Position numbers and translations under genes: made by a program. From an uncultured Gemmatimonadales bacterium (lineage in GTDB: Bacteria; Gemmatimonadota; Gemmatimonadetes; Gemmatimonadales; GWC2-71-9): 64,000 nt of DNA. A model generated the notes under the pieces. It did no database searches and had not been told where the DNA came from. It worked only from the letters and a program-made list of their open reading frames with translations. Positions 2,956 through 60,426 of the stretch are shown piece after piece (within the stretch, counting starts at the first letter, position 1; the number at the start of each line of letters is the position of its first letter). Where the stretch lies: the NCBI GenBank assembly GCA_963695555.1, contig CAVOGR010000002.1, positions 96,001 to 160,000 on the forward strand, in the 5' to 3' direction.

Positions 2956-3825
2956 TCAGGAGCGCTCGATGCGCACCCGGGGCCTATCCATGCGTCCCGG
3001 GTCAACCGAGCGATTGCGCCAAACGGGCTCGTCCGGAGAATCCGGCACCGTCATGCTGATGGTCTGACGGCGCTGCTTTCGCATGATCGCAAGCTCTACG
3101 GTCTCTCCTTGCTCGTACGAGCCGAGGATGCGCATCGCGTGTGACGGCGTCTTCGGCGTGCGGCCCGCAATGGAGAGGATCACATCGCCTGGCTTCAGGC
3201 TGAGCTCCGACCCTTCCGCCACACTCACCACCAGGAGCCCTTCCTTGGCGGCGAAATACTCGCCGAGGTCGGGATTCAGGCTCACCAACTCGAGCCCGCC
3301 CCATCGGCCGGTGCCGAAGAACTCAAAGTTGAGGTCGCGCGGCATAAAGCGGAACTCGTTCATTCCGCGCTGGAGGCGCTCCATATCCGGCATCCGGAAC
3401 GAGAAGGTGTTCCCCATGTCCTCCGCCTCGAGCGTCGCCTTCTGGCTCTTCGCACCGCGGCGGTACTCGATCTCCACCTTGTCTCCCGGATCGAGCTTCC
3501 GGGCCAGCTCGACCAACTTCATGCCCGGGCCAGACGCGTTCTCATCGTCAGCCTTGACCCCGGCCAGGGCGGTGCCGTTGAACTTGGTGATGATGTCGCC
3601 GGCCTCGAGCCCAGCCTTGTCCGCTGGTCCGTCCGGCACCACCGATTCGACTTCGGCGCCGATCTTGTCCCGAGCCATGTCGGCCCGGGTGTTGACCATC
3701 ACCCCGATCCGCCCCCGGCCGGCGCCGAACGCGAAGACCCTGAGATCCCGGTCCTGTGCCTGTGCCAGACCCACGGGGACGGTAAGGAGGAGCGCGAGCG
3801 CTCCAAAGAGCCACTGTCGTTTCAT
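2956..3825 (-). CDS. Secreted tandem PDZ-domain protein
   Basis: Signal peptide; two PDZ units (VVPDGPADKAGLEAGDIITKFNG; LKPGDVILSIAG); no protease domain. Confidence 0.85.
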   Translation of the reverse strand: MKRQWLFGALALLLTVPVGLAQAQDRDLRVFAFGAGRGRIGVMVNTRADMARDKIGAEVESVVPDGPADKAGLEAGDIITKFNGTALAGVKADDENASGPGMKLVELARKLDPGDKVEIEYRRGAKSQKATLEAEDMGNTFSFRMPDMERLQRGMNEFRFMPRDLNFEFFGTGRWGGLELVSLNPDLGEYFAAKEGLLVVSVAEGSELSLKPGDVILSIAGRTPKTPSHAMRILGSYEQGETVELAIMRKQRRQTISMTVPDSPDEPVWRNRSVDPGRMDRPRVRIERS

Positions 3826-4092
3826 GAGTGAGTATCTCCCTTTTGTGGTACTTGGCTTCTAGTGGTAGGGATTCGGGAGGGGGCCGGATGGTCGCACGGA
3901 AAGGACGTAGGAGGGTAGGGACGTAGGAGTGTGGGACTACAGGCCGGGGCCGATCTTGGTCCCTACTTCCCACCAGCCTACTGCCCTACCTCCTCCCACA
4001 GTCTCTCCCACCCGTTTCAGGCCGGGTTAGATTTCCCACCATTCCCCCTGTCACTTGCTACAGAGCGCTCAGCTCTGCGAGGAGACTGCCCC

Positions 4093-4635
4093 ATGCGTGC
4101 CGCCGTCGAACGGCTCTGGCCCGAGCTCGAGTGGATCGAGGACCCAGGCCTCAGGGAGCAGACCACCCAAACCTGGACTACCGCGTTCGAGCGGAGCCCG
4201 CTCGAGCCCGACGACTTGAACGAGATCCCCTTCACGCTGCTCGTCCCGAATTGTCCGGCCACGTTCATGGAGCACAAGCGGTGCGTGGTCCACATTGCGC
4301 GCGCGGGGGCTAGGGCCATGCAGGAATTCATGGGAACCTCGCTCACAATCGACCTGGATACGGTCATCGCCGGCGCCATCCTGGCCGACGTGGGCAAGCT
4401 CCTGGAGTACGAGAAGGTCGGCGGGAAGGCCGTCCAGAGCGACCGTGGGAAGAACCTCCGGCACCCGTTCACCGGTGTGGCGCTCGCAATGGAGTGCGGC
4501 GTGCCGGAAGCGGTCTGCCATATCATCGCGGCCCACGCCGGCGAGGGCGACCTGGTCAAGCGCAGCACCGAGGCGATCATCGTCCACCACGCGGACTTCA
4601 TGGCCTACCTGCCGTTCAAGAACCTGTCTCGCTGA
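4093..4635 (+). CDS. HD/HDIG-domain protein with the HD motif changed to AD
   Basis: MEHKR...GAILADVGKLLEY...RHPFTG...HIIAAH...VHHAD; first gene of the tricarboxylate operon. Confidence 0.8.
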   Translation: MRAAVERLWPELEWIEDPGLREQTTQTWTTAFERSPLEPDDLNEIPFTLLVPNCPATFMEHKRCVVHIARAGARAMQEFMGTSLTIDLDTVIAGAILADVGKLLEYEKVGGKAVQSDRGKNLRHPFTGVALAMECGVPEAVCHIIAAHAGEGDLVKRSTEAIIVHHADFMAYLPFKNLSR

Positions 4636-4653
4636 CCAAGCGGAGAGAGACAT

Positions 4654-6031
4654 ATGCCGGACACCATCACCGCCACCATGGCCCGCTGGGCCTCCGACCT
4701 CACGTTCGACGACATCGGCGCCCAGGCCGTGCACGAGGCGAAGCGATACCTGCTGGATTCCCTGGGCTGCGCCTTCGGCGGCTTCCGCCAGGAAGACGCG
4801 CGGATCGCCATGGAGGTGCTCGACGAGGTCGGCGGGAAGGGACCGGCCACCATCCTCGGCAGCGGGAAGCGCACCGACCCTGTCACCGCGTCGCTCGCCA
4901 ATGCGCTGATGGTCCGGGTGATGGACTACAACGACATCTACTGGCAGCAAGATCCGTCGCACCCCTCGGACATCATTCCCGCTGCGATCGCCTGCGGCGA
5001 ACGGGCCGCAAGGAAGCGGCACAGACCTCGTCGTCGGCATCGTGCTGGGACATGAATTCGAGATGCGGATGTGCGAGGCTGCCTTCCCGGGCATCCGCGA
5101 GCGCGGCTGGCACCACGCGACACTCACCGCGTTCGTCTCGCCCATCGTCGCCGGACGCATGCTCGGCCTTCCGTGGGACAAGATCCAGCACGCGATCGGG
5201 ATCTCGGCTTCACGCCATGCCACCCTCGGGGCAGTGACCGCGGGCAAGCTCACCATGATGAAGAACACGGTCGACCCCATGGCCACCCAGTCGGGAGTGC
5301 TGGCGGCGCTCCTGGCCGAGAAGGGGTACACCGGCCCCGAGCACGTGATCGATGGGAAGGAAGGGCTGGCGCATTGCTTCGGGCCCGAGTGGAAGCTCGA
5401 CGTGCTGGTGGATGGGCTGGGCGATGCCTGGCGGATCGAGCGGTGCGGCATGAAGGCTTTTCCTACCGAGGCCCTCACCCACACCCCAATCTCGGCCGTG
5501 CTCGACATCGTGCACGCGAACGACCTGAAACCCGATGACATCGAGCAAGTCCACATCCGGTCACTGGCACGCGCGGCGGACATCCTCGCCGACCCGTCGA
5601 AATACGATCCGCGCACCAAGGAAACCGCCGATCACAGCCTCCCCTACGTGATCGCCGCCGCGATCGCGGATGGACAGGTGACGCCCGCGCAATTCGAAGC
5701 CGACAAGATCATGGATCCGATCATCCGCGCGCAGCTGAATAAGGTGAAGGTGGTGGCCGATCCGGAGATCGAAGCTGTCTTCCCCAAGCTTCAGCGCGTG
5801 ATCGTCACCGTGACGACCACCGACGGGCGCGAACTGACCAAGCAGCTGGATTACCCCAAGGGAGACCCGCGGAATCCGCTCACCGACCAGGAAGTCGAAG
5901 AGAAATTCGACGCCCTTGCGGGTCCAGTGCTCTCAAAAGGCGCGCGGGCCAAGCTCAAGCAGGCGGTATGGGATCTCGAGAAGCAGAAGTCGATTTCGAA
6001 GCTCATGGCTCTCTGCACCACTGACCGGTAG
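4654..6031 (+). CDS. prpD: MmgE/PrpD-family dehydratase, split by one frameshift near 5008-5011
   Basis: DSLGCA, DYNDIY...SHPSD, RGWHH, KETADHSLPY, PKGDPRNPL; ORFs 4654-5055 and 5042-6031 join as ACGERA/GSGTDLVVGIVLGHE. Confidence 0.85.
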
Positions 6032-6048
6032 CCCACTCGGAGACGACG

Positions 6049-7995
6049 ATGGGTCAGACGATCACGGAGAAGATCGCGCAGCAGTACATGACCGAAGGCC
6101 CGGCCCGGCCGCTCCGTCCGGGTGACGTCATCTCGCTTCGGCCACGGCACGTGCTCACGCACGACAACACCGCGGCGGTCATGAAGAAGTTCCGGGCGAT
6201 TGGCGCAGACCGGGTCTTCGATCCCAGGCAACCGGTCTTTGCGCTGGATCACGATATCCAAAACACCTCCGAGACCAATCTCGCGAAGTACGCCGAGATC
6301 GAGGCCTTTGCCGCGGAGCACGGCGTCGATTTCTATCCGGCCGGCACCGGCATCAGCCACCAGGTGATGGTGGCGCACGGGTACGTAGTTCCAGGCTCAC
6401 TGGTCGTGGGTTCGGATTCCCACTCCAACATGTACGGAGCGCTCGGGGCGTTGGGCACACCGGTGGTGCGGACCGACGCGGCTGCCATCTGGGCCACAGG
6501 CGAGTTCTGGTGGCAGGTGCCGCGCACCGTCCGCGTGGTGCTCGAGGGCACGCTCCGGAAGGGTGTGACTGGAAAGGACGTGATCGTTATGCTGTGCGGG
6601 CTCTACAACCAGGGCGAGGTGCTGAACGCCATCGTCGAGTTCGCCGGCCCGGGCGTCGCCAGCCTGAGCGCCGACGCCCGCATGACTATCGCCAACATGA
6701 CGACCGAATGGGGCGCGCTCGCCGGATGGTTCCCGATAGATGCGGTCACGATCACCTACCTGAAGTCCCGAAAGAAGATCATCGAGGCGGCGGGAAGCTC
6801 CCGATTCACCGACGACGACCTCACCGCTTGGGCAACCAACCCGCCCGCACCCGATCCGGACGCGGCCTATGCCGGTGAGATCGTACTCGACCTGGCAACC
6901 GTGAGCCCACACGTGTCGGGGCCCGACACGGTGCAGGTCATGCGCTCGGTGGCGGACATCGAGCGCGACAAGATTGCGATCCAAAAGGCCTACCTGGTCA
7001 GCTGCGTCAACAGTCGGCTCGAGGATCTCGAGGCGGCGGCCCGAGTTATTGAGGGCAAGAAGGTGGCCCCCAGCGTGGACTTCTACGTGGCCGCTGCGAG
7101 CAAGGAGGTGCAGGATCGAGCCGAGGCGTCGGGTGCATGGGGCACGCTGCTCGCGGCGGGCGCCCATCCGCTGCCGCCCGGATGCGGGCCCTGCATCGGG
7201 CTCGGCGTGGGGCTCCTCGAGCCAGGCGAGGTCGGGATCTCAGCCACAAACCGGAACTTCAAGGGCCGCATGGGCTCCCGAGAGGCGCAGGCGTACCTCG
7301 GCAGTCCGGCTGTCGTCGCTGCTTCGGCGGTGGCGGGCTACATCACCGGCCCCGGCCCCTCCTATGGCGGGCAGCCGGAGAAGCGGTTCGTCGAGTCGGC
7401 CGAGCGGGCGCGGGCGCCTGAACGGGTCGATATCCTCAACGGCTTCCCCGAGCGTCTCAGCGGCCGGCTGGTGTTCGTCCCGCAGGACAACCTGAACACC
7501 GATGGGATCTACGGGAAGGACTACACCTACCGCGAGGACATGACCGCGGAGCAGATGGCCGAGGTCGTGATGGAGAATTACGATCCCGCCTTTGCCGGCC
7601 GGACCGCCGCGGGCGACGTGTTGGTCGGCGGGTGGAACTTCGGCACCGGGTCGAGCCGGGAGCAGGCGGCGACGGCGCTCAAGGCGAAGGGAATCGCGCT
7701 GGTGATCGCCGGGAGTTTCTCGCAGACGTATCTTCGAAACGCCTACAACAACGGCTTCGTCTGCATCGAGTGTCCCGAGCTCGTGAAACGGCTGAAGCAC
7801 CAGCACGAACCGGCGATGGCAGCCGGCGAGCTGACGATCGTCCCCGGTGATCAGATCGAGGTGGACTTCGCCAACGGGACCATCGCACACAGTGGCGCCG
7901 AGTACGGCTTTGCGGCACTCGGCTCAGTACCCCAATCGCTCGTCGTGGCGGGCGGGGTCGAGAACCTCGTCCGACGACGGTTGGGCCTCGGCTAA
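6049..7995 (+). CDS. lysF: Fungal-type monomeric homoaconitase (Lys4/LysF-like), large and swivel domains fused
   Basis: QTITEKI, THDN, LDHDIQN, DFYPAGTGISHQ, DSHSNMYG, VRTDAAAIWATG.WWQ, SCVNSR, CGPCIGLG, SATNRNFKGRMG, NFGTGSSREQA; closely recalls fungal Lys4. Confidence 0.85.
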   Translation: MGQTITEKIAQQYMTEGPARPLRPGDVISLRPRHVLTHDNTAAVMKKFRAIGADRVFDPRQPVFALDHDIQNTSETNLAKYAEIEAFAAEHGVDFYPAGTGISHQVMVAHGYVVPGSLVVGSDSHSNMYGALGALGTPVVRTDAAAIWATGEFWWQVPRTVRVVLEGTLRKGVTGKDVIVMLCGLYNQGEVLNAIVEFAGPGVASLSADARMTIANMTTEWGALAGWFPIDAVTITYLKSRKKIIEAAGSSRFTDDDLTAWATNPPAPDPDAAYAGEIVLDLATVSPHVSGPDTVQVMRSVADIERDKIAIQKAYLVSCVNSRLEDLEAAARVIEGKKVAPSVDFYVAAASKEVQDRAEASGAWGTLLAAGAHPLPPGCGPCIGLGVGLLEPGEVGISATNRNFKGRMGSREAQAYLGSPAVVAASAVAGYITGPGPSYGGQPEKRFVESAERARAPERVDILNGFPERLSGRLVFVPQDNLNTDGIYGKDYTYREDMTAEQMAEVVMENYDPAFAGRTAAGDVLVGGWNFGTGSSREQAATALKAKGIALVIAGSFSQTYLRNAYNNGFVCIECPELVKRLKHQHEPAMAAGELTIVPGDQIEVDFANGTIAHSGAEYGFAALGSVPQSLVVAGGVENLVRRRLGLG

Positions 7996-8063
7996 TACAA
8001 CCGCGTCCGATCGATCAACAATGAAGACAACCCGCCGGCGGAGCCCCGCCGACAGAGGACAAC

Positions 8064-9251
8064 ATGGCTAAGTACACGGTGGTATCGATGCCCGGCGACG
8101 GCATCGGCAAGGTGGTTCTTCCCGAGGCGGTGCGCGTGCTCGACGCGATCGGGTTCGACGCGGCATACGTGCATGCCGACATCGGGTGGGATTTCTGGAT
8201 CAACGACGGGAACCCGCTCCCTGACAAGACCATCCAGCTGCTCGATCGCCACAAACTCGGCCTGTTCGGCGCCATTACCTCCAAGCCCAAGGGCCTCGCG
8301 ACCAAGGAACTCAAGCCGGAATTGCGCGACAAGGGGTTGGTGTATTTCAGCCCGATCGTCGCCATGCGCCAGCGATTCAACCTAGACGTGTGTATCCGGC
8401 CCTGCCGGTCGTTCCCCGGCAACCCGCTCAACTTCATCCGACAGATGGCAGGCGGCGGCTTCGAGGAGCCGAAGGTAGACGCGGTGATCTTCCGACAAAA
8501 TACCGAGGGATTGTACGCCGGCATCGAGTGGACCGACCCGCCCGAGCAGGTTCGTCAGGCGTTGGCCACCCACCCGAAATTCAAGCGATTTGCCTCCACG
8601 CCTGGACCCGACTTGGCGATCTCCACTCGGGTGTTTACCCGGAACGCGTGTCGACGAATTGTCACGGCGGCATTCGAGTATGCCAAACGCCACGGCTACA
8701 AGTCCGTGACGGTCTGCGAGAAGCCCAACGTGCTCCGCGAGACGTCGGGCATGATGGAGGACGTGGCCGCACAGGTGAAGCAGGGCTTTCCGGACATCCA
8801 GCTCTGGTCCACCAACATCGATGCCCAGATGATGTGGCTCACCAAGAACCCGGAAGACTACGGGGTCATCGTCGCGGGCAATATGTTCGGTGACATCATC
8901 TCCGACGGTTTTGCCGGGCTGGTCGGCGGCCTGGGATTCGCCTGCTCGGGTAACATCGGTGACGAAGTGGCGGTGTTCGAGCCGACCCATGGGTCGGCGC
9001 CCAAGTACCAGCAGCTCGATCCGCCGATCGTGAATCCGATCGCGATGATCTTGAGCGCGGCCATGCTGCTCGACCACGTCGGCGAGACCGACCGGGCCAC
9101 ACGGGTGCGCAACGCCGTTGGCGCGGTGGTCAAGGCTGGGAAGGTGCGCACCTACGACATGCTGCGCCTGGCCGGCGGGCAGGACGTGTTTTCCAAGGGA
9201 GCGGCGACGACCACCCAGGTGGGCGACGCCATCATCCAGCAGCTGAAATAG
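8064..9251 (+). CDS. Isocitrate/isopropylmalate dehydrogenase family, probable homoisocitrate dehydrogenase
   Basis: PGDGIG, LFGAITS..YFSPIVAMR (recalls fungal Lys12 YSSPIVALR), RQNTEGLY, NMFGDIISD, FEPTHGSAP. Confidence 0.8.
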   Translation: MAKYTVVSMPGDGIGKVVLPEAVRVLDAIGFDAAYVHADIGWDFWINDGNPLPDKTIQLLDRHKLGLFGAITSKPKGLATKELKPELRDKGLVYFSPIVAMRQRFNLDVCIRPCRSFPGNPLNFIRQMAGGGFEEPKVDAVIFRQNTEGLYAGIEWTDPPEQVRQALATHPKFKRFASTPGPDLAISTRVFTRNACRRIVTAAFEYAKRHGYKSVTVCEKPNVLRETSGMMEDVAAQVKQGFPDIQLWSTNIDAQMMWLTKNPEDYGVIVAGNMFGDIISDGFAGLVGGLGFACSGNIGDEVAVFEPTHGSAPKYQQLDPPIVNPIAMILSAAMLLDHVGETDRATRVRNAVGAVVKAGKVRTYDMLRLAGGQDVFSKGAATTTQVGDAIIQQLK

Positions 9252-9262
9252 CGAGGTACCCG

Positions 9263-10495
9263 GTGGCGACTCGGAAACGTGCACGGTCCTCCCGCCACGG
9301 GCAGGCAGGCCGCCGCGGCGATGATGTACGCTCGGATCTGTTCGTCTCGGCGACGATCGCGCCGTCCGGAGGTACCCGCATCCGGCTGGCATCGAAGGTC
9401 GAGTCGTTCTACGGAGACTCGATTCGCGAGACCGTCGACGGCGTGCTCACGAGCCTCGGCGTGCGGCATGCCACGGTGCAGATCGAGGACCAGGGTGCGG
9501 TGCCGTTCGTCATAGCCGCCCGAGTGGAGGCAGCGCTGCGGCGGGCCGGGGCCGGTGGTCGCGGCGGAGATGCACGGCCGGAACGCACCGTCGTTCGCGC
9601 CGGACCCACGGCGCGCGACCGGCTCCGCCGCTCGCGGCTCTATCTGCCCGGCAACGAGCCCAAGTTCATGCTCAATGCCGGCATCCACCGCCCGGACGCG
9701 ATCATTCTCGATCTCGAGGACTCGGTCCATCCCAACGACAAGGATACCGCACGGCTCCTGGTCCGAAACGCCCTCCGGTGCGTGGATTTCATGGGCGCCG
9801 AGCGCATGGTTCGAATCAACCAGCTCCCGCTCGGGCTCGACGATCTCGACGCCATTGTGCCGGAAGACCCGGACCTGATCCTCATCCCCAAGACCGAACA
9901 CGCCGATCAGGTGCGGCAGGTGCACGACCACATCGCCGAATTGCGCAACGCAGGTGGCGATGGTCATCCCGTCTGGCTGATGCCGATCTTGGAATCGGCA
10001 CTCGGCGTGGAGCACGCGCACGAGATCGGAACGGCTGCCGACACCGTCGTCGCCCTCACCATCGGGCTCGAGGACTACACCGCCGACCTCGGCGTGCCCA
10101 AGACCCTGGCCGGTACGGAATCTTCCTACGCCCGGACGCGCTTGGTGAACGCGGCGCGGGCGGCAGGGGTGCAGGCCATCGATTCCGTCTTCGGCGACGT
10201 TGGCGACATGGACGGGCTCGCCGCCTGGGCGGAGCGCTCCCGCGGGCTCGGCTTCGAGGGCATGGGCTGCATTCACCCGCGGCAGATCGAGCCGATTCAC
10301 CGGGCCTTCGCGCCGACGGCTGAGGAGATCGAGAAGGCGCAGAAGATCGTGGCCGCGTTCGAGGAGGCCGACCGGAAGGGGCTGGGCGTCGTGAGCCTCG
10401 GCACCCGGATGGTCGATCCCCCGGTCGTCAAGCGGGCGCAGCGGCTCATCGCGACGGCGCGCCAGGCCGGCCTGATTCCCGGGAGTACCCCATGA
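9263..10495 (+). CDS. citE: Citrate lyase acyl-carrier (CitD-like) domain fused to citryl-CoA lyase beta subunit (CitE)
   Basis: N-terminal AG..RSD...SKVESFYGDSIR...IEDQGAVPFVIAARVEAA (CitD-like); C-terminal RRSRLYLPGN, LDLEDSV, VRIN, GLEDYTADLG, CIHPRQI. Confidence 0.88.
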   Translation: MATRKRARSSRHGQAGRRGDDVRSDLFVSATIAPSGGTRIRLASKVESFYGDSIRETVDGVLTSLGVRHATVQIEDQGAVPFVIAARVEAALRRAGAGGRGGDARPERTVVRAGPTARDRLRRSRLYLPGNEPKFMLNAGIHRPDAIILDLEDSVHPNDKDTARLLVRNALRCVDFMGAERMVRINQLPLGLDDLDAIVPEDPDLILIPKTEHADQVRQVHDHIAELRNAGGDGHPVWLMPILESALGVEHAHEIGTAADTVVALTIGLEDYTADLGVPKTLAGTESSYARTRLVNAARAAGVQAIDSVFGDVGDMDGLAAWAERSRGLGFEGMGCIHPRQIEPIHRAFAPTAEEIEKAQKIVAAFEEADRKGLGVVSLGTRMVDPPVVKRAQRLIATARQAGLIPGSTP

Positions 10496-12099
10496 CGCCG
10501 CGCACACGACGGACGCCGAAACGGGCGACCAAGACCACCCCGGAGTTCGTGGTGAACGCGGCGGGACGGCGCGTTCCCACCATGGTGAACGGACAGCCGC
10601 AGGTTCCTTATAAGGGTGTCGGCAAGTACCGGCCAACCGGCGCCAAGCACGGACCGCCCATCGCGTCCTGCGCCGATTACCCGATGAGCGGCGACAAGCG
10701 GGTGAAGGGGGGGGACCTCGCGACCGCGCTCAAGCGGTGTGGCCTGCGTGACGGCATGGTGATCTCGACCCATCATCATTTGCGAAACGGCGACCGGATC
10801 GCACTCCAGGCGCTCCAAGCTGCGGCCAAGCTCGGCGTCAAAGATCTCGTTTGGCTGCCCAGCGCCTCGTTCCCTTGCCACGAGCCCGTGATCGACCTGA
10901 TGAAGGCCGGCGTGGTTCATCATATCGAAGGCAGCATGAACGGGCCGCTCGGCGAGTACTGCTCACGCGGCAAGATGCGCGGCTTGGGCGTGCTCCGCTC
11001 CCATGGCGGGCGGTGGCAGGCGATTCAGGACGGCGAGATCAAGATCGACATAGCGGTCATCGCGGCACCGACGGCCGACGCATTCGGCAACGCCGACGGC
11101 TCACACGGGCCATCAGCGTGCGGTTCGTTGGGATTCGCGCTGGCCGATTCGATGTACGCCGACCGCGTGATCGTGGTCACGGACAACCTGGTGCCCTTCC
11201 CCTGTATCCCGTGGCAGATCCAAGGCAACAACGTGGACTGCGTGGTTGAGGTCGACTCGATCGGCGACCCGTCGCTGATCGTCTCCGGCACCACCGAGAT
11301 TACCAAGAGCCCCGATCGCCTGCTGATCGCGGAATATGTGGCGCGATTCATCCAGGCCGCCGGCATCATGCGAGACGGATTCTCGTTCCAGGCCGGGGCC
11401 GGCGGCATTGCGCTCGCGTTCACCCAGTTCCTCAAGGAGATGATGAAAGCGGAAGGAGTTCGGGCCCGCTTCGTCCGCGGCGGGTCGACCCAGTACCTGG
11501 TCGACCTGCTGAATGAGGGTCTGACGGATTACATCCTGGATGGCCAGACCTTTGACTTGGCCGGCGTCGCGTCGATCGGATCCAATCCGCGGCACGTGCC
11601 CACGTCACCGTTTACGTCGTACAACTTCCACGGCAAGGGCAACTTCGCCTCCCTGGTCGATGCGGCAGTCCTCGGCGCGACCGAGGTGGACATCGACTTC
11701 AACGCCAACGTCGTCACCCACTCCGACGGCCTCTTGCTGCACGGAATCGGCGGCTGGCAGAATTGCCTCTTCAGCGGGTGTACCATCCTCGCGGTTCCGG
11801 CCTTTCGGGACAGGATCCCAGTGATCGTGAATGAGGTCACCACCGTCACGGGCCCGTCCGAGCTGATCGATGTCGTGGTGACCGAGCGTGGCATTGCGAT
11901 CAACCCGCGCCGGAAGGATCTCGTGAAAGCGACCCGCCATTCCGGACTCCCCATTCGCCCGATCGCAGAGATCAAGGCGGAGGTCGAAGCGATCGTCGGC
12001 GGCCCGCCCCAACCTCCTGCCCTGCTCGAGCGCCCGGTGGCGGTGATCAAGTGGGTCGACGGCACGCTGTTGGATACCGTCTGGCAGGTGGCGCAATAG
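10492..12099 (+). CDS. citF: Citrate lyase alpha subunit (citrate CoA-transferase)-like
   Basis: LRDGMVISTHHHLRNGD, RSHGGR, ACGSLGFA, FQAGAGG, LGATEVD, VVVTERGIAINP. Confidence 0.9.
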   Translation: MTPRTRRTPKRATKTTPEFVVNAAGRRVPTMVNGQPQVPYKGVGKYRPTGAKHGPPIASCADYPMSGDKRVKGGDLATALKRCGLRDGMVISTHHHLRNGDRIALQALQAAAKLGVKDLVWLPSASFPCHEPVIDLMKAGVVHHIEGSMNGPLGEYCSRGKMRGLGVLRSHGGRWQAIQDGEIKIDIAVIAAPTADAFGNADGSHGPSACGSLGFALADSMYADRVIVVTDNLVPFPCIPWQIQGNNVDCVVEVDSIGDPSLIVSGTTEITKSPDRLLIAEYVARFIQAAGIMRDGFSFQAGAGGIALAFTQFLKEMMKAEGVRARFVRGGSTQYLVDLLNEGLTDYILDGQTFDLAGVASIGSNPRHVPTSPFTSYNFHGKGNFASLVDAAVLGATEVDIDFNANVVTHSDGLLLHGIGGWQNCLFSGCTILAVPAFRDRIPVIVNEVTTVTGPSELIDVVVTERGIAINPRRKDLVKATRHSGLPIRPIAEIKAEVEAIVGGPPQPPALLERPVAVIKWVDGTLLDTVWQVAQ

Positions 12100-12113
12100 C
12101 GGGAAGGCGTGGC

Positions 12114-12932
12114 TCAGCGAGTCGGGCCGATGCCCTGGTAGCGCAGGTTCCGGGTTCCGTCGGGGTTGTGGACGTAGTGCAGTGACAAGTCGCGCGCGAT
12201 ATCGGGCGCGGATTCCATGGCGAACGCCGTTGGGATGAACTCGAACTTGGCGTAATGCTCGCCGTCCCGCGTCCTCACGAAGTAGATACCGCCATCAGAT
12301 CCAAAGTCGAGCTCGGCGGTAGCTGCGTACCCGTCCGCCGGAGCGGTGTCGGTATAGATGAGGAACATGTTGTCGACGCCCAGCTCTTCTCGTGAGACGA
12401 ATCGGATGCCGCCGGCTCCGGATACTCGGAGCCGCATGTTTCCCCTCGACCCAGGCTCGACGGATTCCGGGAAGATGTCGGCATTGTCTGCAGTGGTCGC
12501 GAGCCGGCGCGTCGCGAAGTCCCAGCCGTAATAGCTCCCGTCGGTCTTCTGTCCCAGCCTGAGGAACCCACTGGGCAGCGCCTTCAGACCTTCGATTCGC
12601 TGCTTGAGGCGGATGCGAACCTCAGCGTTTCGGGGATACCACGACTGGAACCGCTGGTAGCCCTGATGCTCCACCCAGAGATTGACGCTGCTGCCGTGCC
12701 GATACCCGATGGTGAACGCACCCACGGAATCGGTTGTGGTGAAGGTTGAGTAATCCTTGTCCCACACCAGGCTCCCATTGCTCAAGCCCCAGCCATGCTG
12801 GGCGGCGCGGATGGTGGCACCCTCGATGGGCCGGTCGGTCTCGAAGTCCGTTGCCGTGCCGGAGACGTGCTTCTCGGTTAAGCATCCGGCCAGGCTCAAC
12901 GCCACCGGGATCACAAGGCTGAAAGCCTTCAT
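12114..12932 (-). CDS. Hypothetical lipoprotein with carboxypeptidase-regulatory-like N-terminal domain
   Basis: Lipobox LSLAGC; VSGTATDFETDRPIEGATI. Confidence 0.65.
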   Translation of the reverse strand: MKAFSLVIPVALSLAGCLTEKHVSGTATDFETDRPIEGATIRAAQHGWGLSNGSLVWDKDYSTFTTTDSVGAFTIGYRHGSSVNLWVEHQGYQRFQSWYPRNAEVRIRLKQRIEGLKALPSGFLRLGQKTDGSYYGWDFATRRLATTADNADIFPESVEPGSRGNMRLRVSGAGGIRFVSREELGVDNMFLIYTDTAPADGYAATAELDFGSDGGIYFVRTRDGEHYAKFEFIPTAFAMESAPDIARDLSLHYVHNPDGTRNLRYQGIGPTR

Positions 12933-12964
12933 ACGTTGCCCCTTCCCTTCGAACAAGGTAACCA

Positions 12965-13023
12965 GGCCAATCTTGACAATGTCAAGATTGGCCATATCTT
13001 CCTTATCTTGACGTCGTCAAGAT
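12965..13023. promoter_or_regulatory. Tandem palindromic operators ATCTTGAC-N3-GTCAAGAT between divergent genes
   Basis: Copies at 12970-12988 (within a 14-bp-arm perfect palindrome 12965-12993) and 13005-13023; first copy overlaps TTGACA-N16-TATCTT. Confidence 0.75.
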
Positions 13024-21563: not shown

Positions 21564-22934
21564 TTACGGCCAGATCCCTCGCGCCGCCGTGACCCGGGCC
21601 ACCCGCTGGACCGCCAGGATGTAGGCCGCTGTTCTGAGATTTACCGGCTCGAGTTTAGCTCCGTCCCCCAGATTCCTCGTCTTCCGCTCGGCTCCGATTT
21701 GACCGAGGGACTCGTTGATCTTCCGCTGGGTCTCGATCACGGCGTCGGTGGCCGTGTTCATCTTCCGGCGCAGCTTGGTGTTCACCGTGTCCAGGTCCCA
21801 CTGCTCGTTTTCGATATTCTGCACCCACTCGAAGTAGCTGACGGTAACACCGCCGGCATTGGCCAGAATGTCGGGCAGGACTGGGATGCCGCGCTCCATA
21901 AAGATGCGGTCGGCGGCAGGGGTGGTCGGACCATTGGCCGCCTCGACCACCAGATGCGTGCTGACGTCGCCGGCATTGTCCGACCGAAGCTCGTTCTCGA
22001 GTGCAGCTGGGATCAGGATGTCACATGGCAGTGCCAGGAGTTCCTCGTTGTTCACAGTGCGGGTACCGGCCAGCCCAACCACGGAGCCGGTCTTCCGCTT
22101 GTGCTCCTTGGCGGCCTTGTAATCCAAGCCGGCTTCGCGGTAGATCCCACCCTTCGAGTCGCTGACCGCCACCACCTTGGCCCCCGCGTCGGTGAATTCC
22201 TGTGCCGCGATGGCACCGGCGTTGCCGAAGCCCTGGATCACGACGGTGGCGTCCTTCACGCTCTTCCGTCCCGGAACGACGCCCAGCTCCAGCGCCCGTT
22301 GGGTGCAGAACAACGCACCCCTCGCGGTGGCCTCATTTCGGCCACGCGACCCTCCGATGTCCAACGGCTTGCCGGTGACGACGGGAAGGTTGTTCTCTCC
22401 GGGATGCATCATTTGATACGTATCGTAGATCCACGCCATGGTCTCGGCGTTGGTGTTCACATCGGGCGCCGGGATATCGGTGTGGGGGCCGATGGTATCG
22501 CCCAGCTCCGCAATGAATCGCCGGGTGATCTTGCGCAGGTCGGACGTGGTGAGATTCTTGGGATTGCAAACCACACCGCCCTTGGCGCCGCCGAACGGCA
22601 CGTCGACCACCGCGCACTTCCAGGTCATCCACGACGCCAACGCGAGCACCTCGTCGGCCGTGACGCCGGGGTGATAGCGGATCCCACCCTTGCCCGGGCC
22701 GCGAACCCGATTGTGGATGGCCCGATAGCCCACGAAGTTGAGCACCTCACCGCTCTGGGTCTCGATCGGAAACTCCACCGCGATCAGGCGGTCGGGCCGC
22801 TTCAAGAATTCCACCATGCCGGCATCGAGCTCGGGGAGATAACGAACGGCCCCGTCGAACTGCGCCATGGCGATGTGAAAGGGATTGAGATCTTCCGCCT
22901 GCTCCGGCGGGGCTTCGAGAGTTTCAGGGGTCAT
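21564..22934 (-). CDS. Glu/Leu/Phe/Val dehydrogenase (NAD-type glutamate dehydrogenase subgroup)
   Basis: GPGKGGIRYHP, PFGGAKGG, DIPAPDVNT, VTGKP, QGFGNAG, EAANGP. Confidence 0.92.
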   Translation of the reverse strand: MTPETLEAPPEQAEDLNPFHIAMAQFDGAVRYLPELDAGMVEFLKRPDRLIAVEFPIETQSGEVLNFVGYRAIHNRVRGPGKGGIRYHPGVTADEVLALASWMTWKCAVVDVPFGGAKGGVVCNPKNLTTSDLRKITRRFIAELGDTIGPHTDIPAPDVNTNAETMAWIYDTYQMMHPGENNLPVVTGKPLDIGGSRGRNEATARGALFCTQRALELGVVPGRKSVKDATVVIQGFGNAGAIAAQEFTDAGAKVVAVSDSKGGIYREAGLDYKAAKEHKRKTGSVVGLAGTRTVNNEELLALPCDILIPAALENELRSDNAGDVSTHLVVEAANGPTTPAADRIFMERGIPVLPDILANAGGVTVSYFEWVQNIENEQWDLDTVNTKLRRKMNTATDAVIETQRKINESLGQIGAERKTRNLGDGAKLEPVNLRTAAYILAVQRVARVTAARGIWP

Positions 22935-23109
22935 CGGTACTCCCATGTCCAAGGGCGGCCTAGCTATTGAAGGCCAAGCCGACCGGTTTGTAGCGTTGTG
23001 TCTTCGGACTAGCGACTATACCGCCGAAAGGCGAAAGAAATTCTGAAGGCGACAGGAATTCTCCTAATTACTGGCGCCCCCCCCCGGGCCTCATCCGGCG
23101 ACCGCGCGC

Positions 23110-45015: not shown

Positions 45016-47255
45016 CTAGAGCCGCCAGATTTGGGCGACGAGGAACGTCACGACAAAGCCCATCACCAGCGGCAAGACCGTCGCGACGGTGGTCCATTTG
45101 GTGCTGCCGGTTTCCTTATAGATCGTATAGATGGTCGTCGAGCACGGATTGTGGAGCAGGCTGAACAGCATGAGGTTGAGGCCGGTCAGCAGCGTCCACC
45201 CTCCAGCCCGCAGCAGGTCGCCCACCTGAGAGACCGAGTCCAGCTCGAACATGACGCCCGCCCCACGCCCCCACGCCCGCGATCCCGGCCGTGAGCACGG
45301 TCAGCATCAGGACCGTGGGAATCACGATCTCGTTGGCGGGAATGGCCACGACGTAGGCCAGGAGGATCACCCCGTTCAGGCCAATGAGGATTCCGAACGG
45401 ATTCAGCCAGCCCACCATATGCTCGGCAATGCTGGTACCGCCCACGGACACGTTCGAGATCAACCAGATGACCGCGCCGGCCGGCAAGGCAAACATCACC
45501 GCACGCCAGAGCACGATGAGCGTCCGGTCGATCAGCGAGGTATAGAGTGTCTGGAGAATCCGCGGCGGCCGGTAGGGAGGCAGCTCCAGACTGAAAGTCG
45601 TCGCCTCACCCCGGAGCACGGTGCGCGACAGGAGCCACGACGCCACGAACATTGCCATGATTCCGAGGAGCGCGATGCCGACGACCGCGGCGGCCGCGAC
45701 CACGCCGGCGACGTGCGCCGGGGCGAGCGTTCCGATGAAGATCGACGCGATGAGGATCTGGGTGGGCCAGCGGCCGTTGCAGAGCGAGAAGTTGTTGGTA
45801 ATGATCGCGATCAGCCGCTCGCGCGGGCTGTCGATGACTCGGGTTGCCACGACGCCGGCTGCGTTGCAGCCGAACCCCATGCACATGGTGAGCGCCTGCT
45901 TGCCGTGGGCCCCCGCCTTCTGAAAGAGCTTGTCCAGATTGAACGCCACCCGCGGCAGATACCCGAAGTCTTCGAGCAGGGTAAAGAGCGGGAAGAAGAT
46001 GGCCATCGGCGGCAGCATGACGGTGACCACCCACGCGGTGGCGAGATACATGCCGTCGAATAGGAAGCCGCTCAGCCACCACGGCATGCCGATGGCGGCT
46101 CCGAGAGCCTTCAAGGCCGGGTGCACCGTGTCGAGTCAGGAACGTCGCGATCATTTGCGACGGGACGTTGGCCCCCGCAATGGTGACCCAGAAGACGACC
46201 GCGAGAATCAGCAGCATCACCGGGAAGCCCAGCCAACGGCTCGTCAGCAGCCGATCGAGCTGACGATCGAGATCGAACTTCACGCGCCGCAGCCCGGTGA
46301 CGGTCGATCGGGCCGCTATGCCTTGGGCGCTCTCGTAGATCCCCTGCATCAAGGAATCGTGGAACGTGGGGCTGAGCTCCCACCGAAGGGTGGCGGCGGT
46401 GTCCAACAACTCCTGATTGCCTTCCACGAGCGCCACGCCTTGCCCTTTGGCGTCCCATGCCCCGGCGGACTGCACCACGCCCTCACTCAGCGCTCCGATC
46501 TCACCGGACCGAACCGCTGACAGGACTCGCTCGTCGGCATTCAGCAGTCGAAGGGCAACCCACCGCGCATTGGGCAGCTCCGGAAAGGTCCGCGACACGG
46601 CGGGAACCAGCTGTTGCACCGCGCCCTCGACATTCGGAGGAAGTTCCCGGATGCGGAACGGTCGCGGCTCGACCTGCCCGGTTGCCATCTTATCGATCGC
46701 CACCAGCAGTTCAGGGATGCCCTCGCCGCTCCGTGCCGCGGTGGGAACGACCGGAACGCCGAGTTCGTGGGCCAGCTTGGTCACGTCGACACCGATGCCC
46801 TGACGCCGGGCCTCGTCCATCAGATTGAGGCAGACGACCACTCGATCGGTGATCTCGAGCACCTGGATCACCAGGTTGAGGTTGCGCTCGAGACGGGTCG
46901 CATCGACCACGATGACCGTGACGTCGGGACGCCCAAAGAGGAGGAAGTCGCGGGCTACTTCTTCGTCGGTGCTGCCGGCTTGCAGTGAGTAGGTCCCGGG
47001 CAGGTCGATGAGCTTGACCCGCTTCCCTTCATTCGTGAACGTGCCTTCGGCCCGGGCCACGGTCTTGCCGGGCCAGTTCCCGGTGTGCTGCCGGAGCCCG
47101 GTCAGTGCGTTGAACACGGTACTCTTGCCGGTATTCGGGTTGCCGGCCAGGGCAACGAAGTAGTCCCACTTGTCCGGCTGAACGCCGAGCTGCACCAGCG
47201 ACTCGGTGCGATCGGCGGCGCAGCCTCGACACGGCGCCGTACTAGTGATGCCCAT
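45016..47255 (-). CDS. feoB: Ferrous iron transporter FeoB, two frameshifts (about 46135 and 45265)
   Basis: [57 protein letters not shown] spread over three consecutive ORFs. Confidence 0.88.
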
Positions 47256-48291
47256 GGCCCTGCCCGGCGGCAGATGTGGCGGGCTCGATCAGGATCCACT
47301 CCGCTTGGTGACGGCGGAGCGCGATCATCGCGCCGCGGATCCGGTACGCGACGGGGTCCCCAGCTGCGCTCACCAACTCCGCCTCGATTGCGGTGCCCGG
47401 AACCACACCAAGGTCGAGCAAGCGCCGGCGTTGGGCTCCTTGGCAGGCGGGGGCGATCCCCACGACGGTCCCGCTCTCGCCAAGGTCGAGATCCGTCAGG
47501 TTCGGCAGCGGCACCGCCGCCACTTCGAGGGTGGGCTTTGGAAGAACCGTCACATTGGCGGCAACGACCGGGAGAAGTTCGTGCTCCCGTCCGTCCGTCT
47601 TGAACCGCACCCGCGAGGGATCGGCTGTCACCACCTCGACCGACATGCCGGGCGCGAGACCCTCCGCCAGCACACGGTCGTACACTTCGCGTGGCTCGTC
47701 TTCCAGGTGGACGATCGTTGCGGTGAGGCCGGGGTCGAGGGCGCTGAGCGGAATCCCCGGCATGGCGGGGAGCTCCCCCGTTGCGGTGGGGATCGGATCG
47801 CCGTGCGGATCGTACAGTGGCTGGCCCATTCGAGCCGCGAGATTCTCGGTTTGCTCCTCCGAGAGCCGGTGCTCTTTGATCTCCGCGTCGTCGTGCCAGT
47901 CCGCGGCGGCGACGCCGGTGCGGTCGGCCAGGTAGCGTTCCCACAACCGGTGGGTTCGGAGGATCCGGAGCGCGTAGGCCCGACCCTCATCGGTGAGTCG
48001 CAGTCCTTCCGCGGTCGAGTGCGCGAACCCGAGCGCCTCCACCCGGGCCATCACCCGGACCGCTCGGGCCGGTGACACCCCAAGCGTCCCCGCGACACCC
48101 GGGGCATTCCCAGGCTGGCCCGACAGCTCCGCGTTGTAGAGGTGTTTGAGCGCATCCTCGATGCGCACCCGCTCCGTCATCTGCCAAAGTCGGATGACGC
48201 GGGCGGCGAACCCCCATCGCGGCCACACGACGAGGGCCGTGCCCACAACGAGGAGGGCAAAGATCGACAGTGCCAGAACAGGGTTAACCAT
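47242..48291 (-). CDS. Membrane-anchored DtxR-like protein fused to two FeoA domains
   Basis: N-terminal TM; EDALKHLY, LRTHRLWERYL, DPHGDPIP; C-terminal RRRLLDLGVVPG...GDPVAYRIRG..IALR. Confidence 0.82.
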   Translation of the reverse strand: MVNPVLALSIFALLVVGTALVVWPRWGFAARVIRLWQMTERVRIEDALKHLYNAELSGQPGNAPGVAGTLGVSPARAVRVMARVEALGFAHSTAEGLRLTDEGRAYALRILRTHRLWERYLADRTGVAAADWHDDAEIKEHRLSEEQTENLAARMGQPLYDPHGDPIPTATGELPAMPGIPLSALDPGLTATIVHLEDEPREVYDRVLAEGLAPGMSVEVVTADPSRVRFKTDGREHELLPVVAANVTVLPKPTLEVAAVPLPNLTDLDLGESGTVVGIAPACQGAQRRRLLDLGVVPGTAIEAELVSAAGDPVAYRIRGAMIALRRHQAEWILIEPATSAAGQGHGHH

Positions 48292-48300
48292 CAGACGCTC

Positions 48301-48993
48301 TCATGCACTCACATCCTCGGCCCGACGGCAGAAGACCAGCGCGGCGAGCTCGCGGCCGATGACTTGCTCTCGCCCCCCAACGCGCAGCGTGATTGGGCCG
48401 CCAAAGGGCTGGCAATCCAGGAGCTCGATCCTGCTGCCAAGCTGCAGCCCCGAATCGGCCAGAAAGCGTAACCGCTCGGCGTGATTCGTCATGACCCGGG
48501 ACACTTCCACGACCTGGCCGGGGGCAAGCTCGGCGATCGGAATCGCGTCGACCAGGGCCACCGACCCGTCGGCCTGAGGAATCGGGTCGCCGTGCGGATC
48601 GAACGCCGGGTTTCCCAAGGTCAGTGCCATGCGTTCGATCAGCGAATCGGACACCGCGTGCTCCAGGCGTTCGGCCTCGGGGTGCACGGAGTCCCATGTG
48701 TAGCCCAGCTTTTCAACGAGATACGTTTCGAGAATGCGATGTCGCCGGAGCATGCCGAGTGCAGCACGGCGCCCCTGAGCCGTCAGCTCGACTCCGCGGT
48801 ACGGGGCGTGGTCGAGCAGTCCCTGTTCGGACAGGCGCTTGACCATTTCGCTCACCGACGGAGCCGAGAGGCCGAGGGCGAGCGCAATGTCGCTCGTCGC
48901 CACTGGGCTGGCCTCTTGGGCCAGGCGGTAGATGGCCTTGAGATAGTCTTCCACGGATCGGCTGAGGGCCGGCCTGATCATGAGTTTCGGCAC
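48301..48993 (-). CDS. DtxR/MntR/IdeR family metal-dependent repressor
   Basis: EDYLKAIY, SVSEMVKRL, RRHRILE.YL, EAERLEHAVS, DPHGDPIP, FeoA-like tail. Confidence 0.92.
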   Translation of the reverse strand: MPKLMIRPALSRSVEDYLKAIYRLAQEASPVATSDIALALGLSAPSVSEMVKRLSEQGLLDHAPYRGVELTAQGRRAALGMLRRHRILETYLVEKLGYTWDSVHPEAERLEHAVSDSLIERMALTLGNPAFDPHGDPIPQADGSVALVDAIPIAELAPGQVVEVSRVMTNHAERLRFLADSGLQLGSRIELLDCQPFGGPITLRVGGREQVIGRELAALVFCRRAEDVSA

Positions 48994-50749: not shown

Positions 50750-50979
50750 GTTCAGGAGCACGCACCCCCAATTCCGACGAAATGGCTAGTGTTTGTTGAG
50801 TCATCTCCACGCTTCCTCGCTTAGCTGGCCGGATTCAGTCCGCCATCTGACGGCGAGATCGAGTATTTTGTGTTCGGTCGGTTGGCACACGGCTGCGCTG
50901 ACTCGACTCCGCAGCTCTATCCGCTCGTGATGGGCTAGCCGAACACGTGGCGACCTTGGATCACAACAGGACATCTCTC

Positions 50980-60300: not shown

Positions 60301-60426
60301 GCTCGAGCCGACCCCGGAGCACAGGCCTCGGTGGACGAGCGTGCGGCCCATTACCTCGGTCTTTCTCCAACCGCGTGCGAGGCACTGCATGGTGTGGTCG
60401 AACGTGCCACCCACGATCGTTGCTGA
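57370..60426 (+). CDS. Large N6-adenine DNA methyltransferase (Eco57I/TaqI gamma-class architecture)
   Basis: IPFLNGGLF, LGRVFE, GTYYTP, ILDPAVGSGAF, IFGVD, QGDSL, FDLVIGNPPW; TaqI_C-like tail (KVVWADI..LNTCY..WLNS). Confidence 0.88.
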   Translation: MAHGAPVRLEQALDCIQTLPHLQRLVHWLGYEVAWEEIPPSAWLRRNRWSRSIRRAAVVGRQGGFIWYAVDTDDPASLARRVAGQLGRRGEHAGVLALDPTRRQLAISVSFGPYPVLPLELAAPSRLALHCLERVSAAGPGEAIAAAARLAEALDAAEPGTRFIRRFRGLFTAFAAHLPEAIPPRDRQRLALLQLTRVLFLYFVQNRGWLNGDGDFLRRGVDRCLTDGSDLHRTFFGPLFFGTLNQPYTRRTVASRRFGNIPFLNGGLFEPHWLERRYKPHISNELWSMAFDDLFERFHFTARERSEGHAIAPDMLGRVFEGMMDAEERKKTGTYYTPSALVRELLEAAIGAFLTAKYGLAADVLASRIHKRDPSLAAMTRTLTILDPAVGSGAFLLGALEWLADVLRDDGTTAVVRRRILAQNIFGVDTSTIAVTLTELRLWLAVLAEEQDGAPEAVEPLPNLDCLIRQGDSLSDPFQSLHSLSPRTVAGGRLLGEIRRRFVHATGPGKSKQARLLKRAESRALRLWLDETEAQLDRQLAECIATGKSNTLFGHRQGLDAPLQAHVRAVRAQWHCVRQARRRLERDRALPWFHYESHFADIFATGGGFDLVIGNPPWIRAEFLPSHVRQQLRRRFRWWSGGSGKGFRHQPDLALAFLERGLELAHRDGSVAFLLPAKLATAAYAKKARRMLARETTLHAVADLTPTHARSFDATTYPLAIVTTKGRPSQSHTVRSTLAVSEAIRVPQHELRAAETWIIKGDSVQRAMAELAGHPTIGERLVCHLGVKTGANAVFMNPDADVEPYLLRPALRGRDITAWSAEARISIIWTHDANGSPRTALPPLADSYFRRYAARLRARADFRTGPPWQLFRVGPSLAEYKVVWADIARRLEAVPLTPTTHRAVVPLNTCYLIPTKSAEGARALAAWLNSTWIRGAAAVRADPARGGFARFNARVVSSLPLPPAALNDHQLAQLGDIARADPGAQASVDERAAHYLGLSPTACEALHGVVERATHDRC

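Follow-up and report, generated by a model that had tools for sequence, protein, structure and literature searches.

We analyzed a window of 64,000 nucleotides (nt) from an uncultured Gemmatimonadales bacterium (assembly GCA_963695555.1, contig CAVOGR010000002.1, positions 96,001 to 160,000); the genome that holds it, referred to here as G000, is 87% complete. Pfam and NCBIfam scans of the open reading frames (ORFs) revealed six co-oriented genes on the positive strand at 4093-12099, and these six genes are one conserved, self-contained operon for a putative hydroxy-tricarboxylate module. The first gene (4093..4635) encodes a 180-amino-acid (aa) HD protein with matches to PF01966 (28.9 bits; cut-off, 22) and TIGR00277 HDIG (32.9 bits). 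It is followed by a gene for an MmgE/PrpD-family protein (4654..6031; PF03972 and PF19305), which is divided by a +1 frameshift into ORFs 4654-5055 and 5042-6031. The third gene (6049..7995) encodes a Lys4-type aconitase-family hydro-lyase of 648 aa, with the Aconitase and Aconitase_C domains in a single chain and a TIGR00139 score of 747.7 bits, and the fourth (8064..9251) encodes an Iso_dh-family beta-decarboxylating dehydrogenase of 395 aa (PF00180, 256.5 bits). Next comes a CitD-CitE fusion of 410 aa (9263..10495), which combines an acyl carrier protein (ACP) domain (PF06857, 61.8 bits) with an HpcH_HpaI domain (PF03328, 172.6 bits). The last gene (10492..12099) encodes a CitF-like acyl-carrier/CoA transferase of 535 aa (PF04223, 428.3 bits; cut-off, 27). 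The genes are separated by 18, 17, 68 and 11 nt, and the start of citF overlaps the stop of the CitD-CitE gene by 4 nt.

The same six co-oriented genes, with the same family assignments, had been reported at this place in an initial annotation made from the sequence alone, and the profile scans agree with it. Its list of genes missing from the window also holds as far as it was searched, prpB having had no search with its own model: no HMGL-like, citrate-synthase, CitC, CitG, CitX or LysW family was found by Pfam scans among the 60 window ORFs.

The operon is conserved as a unit. A scan limited to one genome per species yielded at least 599 candidate stretches, and a CitF relative is encoded in at least 490 of the 599 listed. 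We kept the best 80 loci for comparison. Their CitF proteins are 66-80% identical to that of the window and come from many phyla, the record titles naming Gemmatimonadota, Acidobacteriota, Ignavibacteria, Melioribacteraceae, Latescibacteria, Eisenbacteria, Krumholzibacteria, Rhodothermales, Aminicenantes, Planctomycetota and others. Nineteen loci with less than 6.5 kb upstream of citF were set aside, leaving 61 that could be assessed, and a gene was scored as present when a match of at least 40% identity was found anywhere in the locus. Besides CitF, 39 of the 61 carry the HD, PrpD-family, aconitase-family (Acn), dehydrogenase (IDH) and CitD-CitE (CitDE) genes, 11 carry CitDE alone, three carry the full set minus PrpD, and eight carry other partial sets. 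The six-gene set is therefore far from a chance juxtaposition and recurs across phyla, in line with the co-conservation on which the initial annotation had staked its proposal. The usual order is HD-PrpD-Acn-IDH-CitDE-CitF, with IDH-HD-Acn-PrpD-CitDE-CitF in Ignavibacteria. All-against-all clustering of flanking ORFs detected no further family, transporter and regulator families included, that recurs broadly beside the operon. Among 41 relatives of the window's genome (one unpublished genome, G018, is counted among them in every tally), CitF was present in only five, and the distribution is therefore patchy.

Several loci depart from the common plan. In the complete chromosome of genome G046, an IDH-HD-Acn-PrpD block lies far from CitDE-CitF. 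A WOR-3 locus contains the HD gene, a 604-aa aconitase-family gene, a LeuCD-like pair, CitDE and CitF. In a locus from a Cytophagia metagenome-assembled genome (MAG) (L039 4421-11536), a LeuCD-like pair, a malic-enzyme/PTA-domain gene, CitDE and CitF stand in a row. The genomes of these two loci and of the three PrpD-less loci make up five genomes with PrpD-less clusters; searches with the G002 PrpD-family protein and with PF03972 found an MmgE/PrpD gene in none of the five, whose completeness is not given. The hydratases of the three PrpD-less loci form one branch of a neighbor-joining tree (Biopython, no support values), which suggests a single loss of PrpD.

Other genes were observed beside or within some loci. 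The Ignavibacterium album cluster includes a gene for the transporter CstA, and a PD-(D/E)XK nuclease gene lies between its CitDE and CitF genes (L038 9508-9903). A YefM/YoeB toxin-antitoxin pair and a TonB-dependent receptor gene are inserted in the operon of a Melioribacteraceae chromosome (L069 5382-9982). Two Ignavibacteriaceae loci with a lone CitDE-CitF pair (L075 12453-17810 and L087 3405-7776) have four ADP-ribosylglycohydrolase paralogues next to it, together with a TerC protein and parts of a sugar ABC transporter. A link between the glycohydrolases and a ribosylated prosthetic group of the carrier is conceivable.

The frameshift in the MmgE/PrpD-family gene, which the initial annotation did not mention, consists of one extra base near position 5008, as judged by comparison with G002, whose DNA is 97% identical and whose PrpD-family gene can be translated with no internal stop. 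The N- and C-terminal PrpD matches share one frame in genomes G002, G004 and G012. Two RNA-library contigs from different studies cross the site, and both have one base fewer at 5008/5009; one of them has only 9 other letter differences from the window in 1579. G002 itself has breaks in CitDE (L100 7546-8776) and CitF (L100 8776-10382), both of which are intact in G000. Since G002 is broken where G000 is intact, and vice versa, the frame breaks are likely assembly indels rather than signs of decay, and the one at 5008 may alternatively be a strain-specific mutation. G000 and G002 are closely related MAGs of few contigs with single-base breaks in different genes of the operon, and at C7:145175-146309 of G000 an Iso_dh match is likewise split.

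Positions 4005-11064, from the HD gene into citF, are covered by RNA-library contigs from two estuary studies, which also bridge gene junctions. The gene upstream of the operon has a similar depth, and in runs X1 and X6 there was no cover beyond 11350. This cover is weak evidence of expression, as DNA carry-over is possible. In a contig of run X1, 118 other letters stand in place of 100 bases at 3904-4005, upstream of the HD gene, so that this intergenic stretch varies between strains. No known RNA family or riboswitch was detected at E <= 1 within 3000-13000, and promoter and terminator scans returned sites no commoner than in shuffled sequences.

The third gene product has a score on the TIGR00139 homoaconitase equivalog well above the cut-off of 529.9 bits, as opposed to 183.5 bits on the mitochondrial aconitase model, at most 157 on AcnA models and 304-358 on LeuCD/citramalate-isomerase-type models. 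The best PDB match is the large subunit of Methanocaldococcus jannaschii homoaconitase (235 bits), with mitochondrial aconitase at 157 bits, and the protein is 31% identical to Escherichia coli LeuC. The result on this fungal-type model supports the initial assignment as a monomeric homoaconitase. More than 8000 database proteins match it at E <= 1e-50; the top 120 listed are all bacterial and, where named, carry the automatic name homoaconitase. In the swivel-domain loop, "IYGKDYTY," the Tyr-Thr-Tyr is invariant and the Lys is found in 34 of 35 sequences, which suggests a substrate with a distal carboxylate.

The second gene product belongs to the MmgE/PrpD family, both Pfam domains being present. 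The initial annotation is supported as to the family and weakened as to PrpD itself. The best PDB matches are IDS-epimerase (136.7 bits), Bacillus subtilis IRG1 (128.3 bits) and cis-aconitate decarboxylase (CAD; 105.6 bits), compared with 59-63 bits for 2-methylcitrate dehydratase entries. On NCBIfam PrpD models, whose cut-offs range from 458 to 950 bits, the two gene halves scored 45.7 and 44.2 bits against a cut-off of 575. The protein thus misses every PrpD equivalog cut-off and is nearer to IDS-epimerase and IRG1 than to 2-methylcitrate dehydratase. The protein keeps most of the residues aligned with Asp93, His103, His159, Lys207, Lys272 and Tyr318 of CAD, which we take to be its active-site residues. 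This retention is a mark of family membership and not of the reaction.

The dehydrogenase reaches no NCBIfam cut-off. Its best models are the methanogen homoisocitrate dehydrogenases AksF2 (262.3 bits; cut-off, 540) and AksF (250.7; 500); it scores 137 on iso_homocit_dh (cut-off, 680) and 223.5 on the best isocitrate dehydrogenase model, PRK08997 (cut-off, 510). In an alignment of 43 operon sequences with E. coli Icd, the catalytic residues are invariant, as are those at Icd positions 119, 129, 153, 160, 230, 283, 307 and 311. All 43 sequences have Lys/Tyr/Tyr at 344/345/391 and 42 have Val at 351, and position 395 is divided between Arg (22 sequences) and Lys (21). In E. coli LeuB, positions 344 and 345 are occupied by Asp and Ile. 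Lys344, Tyr345, Tyr391 and Arg395 of Icd are presumably its NADP determinants, and the enzyme is accordingly predicted to be NADP-type. The substrate loop was aligned by eye because MAFFT misplaced the gap; it reads "YFSPIVAMR" against "IRSLNVALR" in Icd, and 14 inserted aa, basic residues among them, come before it. Ile stands where Icd has Asn115, which we assume to be an isocitrate-binding residue, and a Val of the loop faces Arg85 of the Thermus homoisocitrate dehydrogenase. PDB searches with the short loop returned isocitrate dehydrogenases only, at E values of 0.18-0.9, or nothing.

The lyase part resembles citrate lyase at some distance. The CitD-CitE fusion is 38% identical to E. coli CitE and CitD, and CitF is 39% identical to E. 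coli CitF. The CitE domain scores 271.4 bits on TIGR01588 citE, below the equivalog cut-off of 443.4, and it also matches the model of the itaconate-pathway lyase RipC/Ccl (163.7 bits). CitF scores 479 bits on TIGR01584, for which the equivalog cut-off is 501.45. In a MAFFT alignment, Ser14-Gly15-Asp16 of E. coli CitD faces Arg-Ser-Asp in the carrier loop. Of 73 sequences, 71 have the Ser of this "R-S-D" motif and every one has the Asp, and hidden Markov model matches of the carrier start at the conserved Ser, profile position 15. In this alignment, the canonical Ser14 column thus lacks Ser, and a near-invariant Ser stands one position later.

CitG, CitX and CitC, which synthesize the prosthetic group of the citrate-lyase carrier, attach it and acetylate it, were also looked for, and G000 is among the genomes in which none of the three was found. 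CitG was found in none of the five operon-bearing relatives, though in 8 of the 41 relatives overall, and CitX in none of the 41. Neither was found in five operon-bearing genomes of other phyla, and CitC was found in none of five operon-bearing genomes. These searches covered 10 genomes for CitG and CitX and five for CitC, 87-98% complete where completeness is stated. The absence of citC, citG and citX that the initial annotation reported for the window therefore extends to the operon-bearing genomes searched. Citrate lyase subunits, once separated from the complex, are able to act on free CoA esters. Either the carrier domain would be loaded by an unfamiliar route, or the enzymes would use free CoA esters.

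The HD protein has a variant motif, "LADVGK," in which the His of the HD dyad is replaced by Ala. In the alignment rows displayed, the replacement is Ala or Ile, and the His is kept in a distant WOR-3 homologue. Orthologues from several phyla share 74-83% identity with the protein, and those of the Ignavibacteria group 48-54%. Its AlphaFold2 model, with a mean predicted local distance difference test (pLDDT) score of 93.4, shows a generic HD fold; the closest PDB entry by Foldseek is YhaM (E, 7.6e-5), and the ESM Atlas offers "putative metal dependent phosphohydrolase" alone. In loci that carry it, the HD gene adjoins the aconitase-family or PrpD-family gene, and it is absent beside lone lyase pairs. 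Strong matches to the HD-protein profile (229-300 bits) occur elsewhere in four of five genomes in which only CitDE and CitF are linked. The HD gene tracks the aconitase-family gene and not the lyase genes.

A function in lysine biosynthesis was considered in the light of the rest of the genome. G000 encodes LysA (445 bits; cut-off, 298). LysA matches occur in 40 of the 41 relatives, 34 of them over the cut-off, and in four of the five operon-bearing relatives, with no match in G012. LysW was found in none of the 41, G000 included. Of the five operon-bearing genomes of other phyla, LysW exceeds the cut-off in one and LysA in four. On these counts, lysine biosynthesis by the LysW route was rejected. 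The sole HMGL-like gene of G000 (433 aa; G000:C7:522914-524215, corresponding to L095 10914-12215, negative strand) lies on another contig than the operon and falls far under every LeuA, CimA and homocitrate-synthase cut-off (TIGR02146, 186 versus 413.55 bits). The cultured carrier I. album is described as an amino-acid auxotroph, lacking dapABD, lysC, asd and the branched-chain pathways and needing yeast extract (Liu et al. 2012, PMC3362086). Because LysA is present, LysW was not found in the 41 relatives and I. album is auxotrophic, the operon does not appear to be an entry to lysine biosynthesis in this lineage. The initial annotation, which had suggested a non-canonical entry to alpha-aminoadipate lysine synthesis as one possibility, is thus supported in its gene content and conservation and not supported in this part of its interpretation.

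G000 has a single citrate-synthase-family gene, also on another contig than the operon. Elsewhere the genome holds, besides this citrate synthase, an aconitase of AcnA size and other Iso_dh genes. With these housekeeping enzymes encoded elsewhere, the operon is not the housekeeping cycle.

Which substrate is used, which way the route runs and what each dehydratase and the HD protein do are inferred from these comparisons. Our preferred reading, which we hold tentatively and at somewhat less than even confidence, is that the operon encodes a homocitrate-type module for shortening 2-oxoacids, which would convert 2-oxoadipate, CO2 and NADPH to 2-oxoglutarate and acetate. The NADP(H)-type dehydrogenase would reductively carboxylate 2-oxoadipate to homoisocitrate, the Lys4-type hydro-lyase would convert homoisocitrate to cis-homoaconitate, and the MmgE/PrpD-family enzyme would rehydrate the latter to homocitrate. 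In the lineage without a PrpD-family enzyme, the rehydration would fall to the Lys4-type enzyme. CitF would then turn homocitrate into an activated thioester by consuming an acetyl thioester, and the CitE domain would split the homocitryl thioester into 2-oxoglutarate and an acetyl thioester. The same enzymes could run in the opposite direction.

A substrate of the homo series is favored by the Lys4-type hydratase, by the altered loop of the dehydrogenase and by the divergence of CitE from the citrate-lyase beta subunit, and because housekeeping citrate synthase, AcnA and genes of the isocitrate dehydrogenase family are encoded elsewhere. The cleaving direction is favored because ACP-type lyases cleave (to our knowledge they are known only as cleaving enzymes), because condensation would have to proceed without thioester hydrolysis to drive it, which the lyase reaction does not provide, and because the cofactor site is of the NADP type, whose residues would fit the reductive direction. 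Also in favor of the reading, I. album is a peptide-dependent auxotroph, and its cluster contains CstA. A pro-3S-type lyase could handle the homocitrate enantiomer opposite to the product of the LeuA family, which would explain the extra dehydratase, in the way that PrpD serves a si-type methylcitrate synthase. A more specific version of the preferred reading would have the upper alpha-aminoadipate pathway reversed, so that lysine-derived 2-oxoadipate and CO2 give 2-oxoglutarate and acetate without glutaryl-CoA, with the carrier loaded or bypassed independently of CitG, CitX and CitC and the HD protein acting as an accessory factor of the Lys4-type iron-sulfur hydratase. We regard this full combination as unlikely, if worth stating.

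Several observations weigh against the homocitrate reading. CitF is merely 22 bits under the cut-off of the true citrate-lyase alpha subunit. The PDB matches of the dehydrogenase are tied between Thermus homoisocitrate dehydrogenase (184.6 bits) and NAD-dependent isocitrate dehydrogenase (183.1 bits); its loop keeps the Ser113 position of Icd, together with a NADP site of the isocitrate dehydrogenase type, and the homoisocitrate dehydrogenases known to us use NAD. Since none of the five genomes with PrpD-less clusters yielded an MmgE/PrpD gene, a two-dehydratase logic is not obligatory, and the stereochemical explanation is weakened accordingly. The Cytophagia locus, with its malic-enzyme gene between aconitase-family genes and CitDE-CitF, resembles citrate-lyase clusters, which pair with oxaloacetate decarboxylase. 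No gene supplying 2-oxoadipate was found linked to the operon in Pfam scans of the window or in flank clustering, and reductive carboxylation is unusual as a catabolic step.

The serious rival is a citrate/isocitrate module, in which 2-oxoglutarate, CO2 and NADPH would give isocitrate, then citrate, and finally oxaloacetate and acetate. Such a module might serve as a reductive branch in glutamate or amino-acid fermentation or as the citrate-cleaving arm of a reverse tricarboxylic acid (TCA) cycle; run backwards, it would divide imported citrate between cleavage and oxidation. CitF (479 versus 501) and CitE match citrate-lyase models best, the dehydrogenase has NADP residues of the isocitrate dehydrogenase type and keeps the Ser113 position, a malic-enzyme gene adjoins CitDE-CitF in the Cytophagia locus, and a five-gene version without PrpD exists. 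The I. album genome report lists IALB_1146/1147 as an ATP-independent citrate lyase and raises a role in citrate fermentation or the reverse TCA cycle (Liu et al. 2012, PMC3362086); apart from this annotation of CitF and CitE-CitD as citrate lyase, our literature search found no description of the gene combination. However, the hydratase exceeds the cut-off of the homoaconitase equivalog and is far from such a score on aconitase models, the Asn115 position of the dehydrogenase loop is Ile, and CitE reaches only 271 of 443 bits. Most versions of the operon carry a second dehydratase, which citrate would not need, in genomes that already hold citrate synthase, AcnA and other members of the isocitrate dehydrogenase family. 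Neither CitC, CitG nor CitX was found in the operon-bearing genomes searched, and no citrate transporter was linked in window scans or flank clustering. On balance we consider a citrate module less likely than the homocitrate reading, though a serious competitor.

Less probable still is another 2-substituted malate or citrate as substrate: citramalate or 3-methylmalate, with 2-oxobutyrate cleaved to pyruvate and acetate, 2-methylcitrate, or an alkylcitrate of plant or fungal origin. In that case the PrpD-family enzyme might be an isomerase or decarboxylase rather than a dehydratase, as its closeness to IDS-epimerase and IRG1/CAD and its kept CAD-aligned residues would allow. The CitE match to RipC/Ccl (163.7 bits) points the same way, and an ACP-type citramalate lyase occurs in Clostridium. 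Against this stand the preference of the hydratase for the Lys4-type model (747.7 bits) over the LeuCD/citramalate-isomerase type (304-358 bits) and the swivel-loop Lys (34 of 35 sequences), which would indicate a distal carboxylate. The single citrate-synthase-family gene of G000 leaves no separate methylcitrate synthase, and no itaconyl-CoA hydratase was linked in window scans or flank clustering.

Biosynthetic elongation, in which acetate acting through a catalytic acetyl thioester would replace acetyl-CoA and extend 2-oxoglutarate to 2-oxoadipate for lysine or another product, is improbable. In its favor, the enzyme order is that of the upper alpha-aminoadipate pathway, the Lys4-type hydratase fits, the sole HMGL-like gene of G000 fits no LeuA or homocitrate-synthase model (186 versus 413.55, TIGR02146), and I. 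album is reported without dapABD, lysC and asd (Liu et al. 2012, PMC3362086). Against it, that organism needs yeast extract, LysA is present in G000 and in four of five operon-bearing relatives, LysW is found in none of the 41 relatives and is over the cut-off in just one of five genomes of other phyla, condensation would have no thioester hydrolysis to drive it, and a NADP-type dehydrogenase would be atypical of an oxidative biosynthetic step.

If the homocitrate reading is true, hundreds of soil and sediment species share an undescribed way of shortening or lengthening 2-oxoacids, in which a lyase replaces the acetyl-CoA-dependent synthase; the carrier species span Gemmatimonadota, Acidobacteriota, Ignavibacteria, Latescibacterota and others. 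It would also give a function to the bacterial proteins annotated as "homoaconitase" in organisms that make lysine by the diaminopimelate (DAP) route and would bear on the question of which enzyme dehydrates homocitrate. Under the citrate reading, the operon would be a reductive branch dedicated to turning 2-oxoglutarate into oxaloacetate and acetate, with consequences for claims of a reverse TCA cycle made from "citrate lyase" genes in uncultured lineages. Whichever reading holds, the lack of CitC, CitG and CitX for a citrate-lyase-like complex poses a biochemical puzzle.

The genes flanking the operon are unrelated to it. Upstream, on the opposite strand, are genes for a PDZ protein and an ECF sigma factor; downstream are a CarboxypepD_reg-like protein, a short-chain dehydrogenase and an aldehyde dehydrogenase with DUF779. 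Farther away, the window contains two ELFV (glutamate/leucine-type) dehydrogenase genes, at 21564-22952 (negative strand) and 50947-52332 (positive strand), 10 and 39 kb from the operon. An iron-uptake cluster at 45606-48993 (negative strand) consists of FeoB, a DtxR-type repressor fused to FeoA, and a second DtxR/FeoA protein. At 57370-62662 (positive strand), an Eco57I-type restriction-modification methylase of 1018 aa is followed by an SNF2-family helicase, and this region may be a defence or restriction island.

Three known systems share parts with the operon. Like the 2-methylcitrate cycle (PrpC, PrpD, AcnB, PrpB), it pairs an MmgE/PrpD-family enzyme with an aconitase-family enzyme, suited to a two-step shift of a hydroxyl group. 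Unlike in that cycle, no PrpC or PrpB is linked (prpB was not searched with its own model), the PrpD-family protein is nearer to IDS-epimerase and IRG1, and G000 has a single citrate-synthase-family gene.

With citrate lyase (CitCDEFXG, EC 4.1.3.6, of E. coli and Klebsiella) and the related ACP-type citramalate lyase of Clostridium, the operon shares a CitF-type transferase, a CitE-type lyase and a CitD-type carrier, at 38-39% identity to E. coli, and the CitE stop and CitF start are coupled in the manner of an operon. In contrast to citrate lyase, CitD is fused to CitE, CitF and CitE score under the NCBI citrate-lyase cut-offs, and CitC, CitG and CitX were not found (10 genomes searched for CitG and CitX, five for CitC). 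The Ser14 column of E. coli CitD is occupied by Arg, with the conserved Ser one position later. The linked genes encode a hydratase/dehydrogenase set and not a citrate transporter and oxaloacetate decarboxylase.

The third parallel is the upper alpha-aminoadipate pathway of fungi and Thermus, together with the 2-oxoacid elongation of methanogens, in which homocitrate synthase is followed by aconitase plus Lys4 or HacAB and by homoisocitrate dehydrogenase. In common with these, the operon has a Lys4-type hydratase, a beta-decarboxylating dehydrogenase that matches homoisocitrate dehydrogenase models best and usually a second dehydratase. Unlike in the alpha-aminoadipate pathway, the dehydrogenase here appears to be NADP-type, the second dehydratase is of the MmgE/PrpD family rather than an aconitase, and LysA of the DAP pathway is present in place of a LysW pathway. 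The operon has no LeuA-family synthase, whose place is taken by the lyase/transferase pair.

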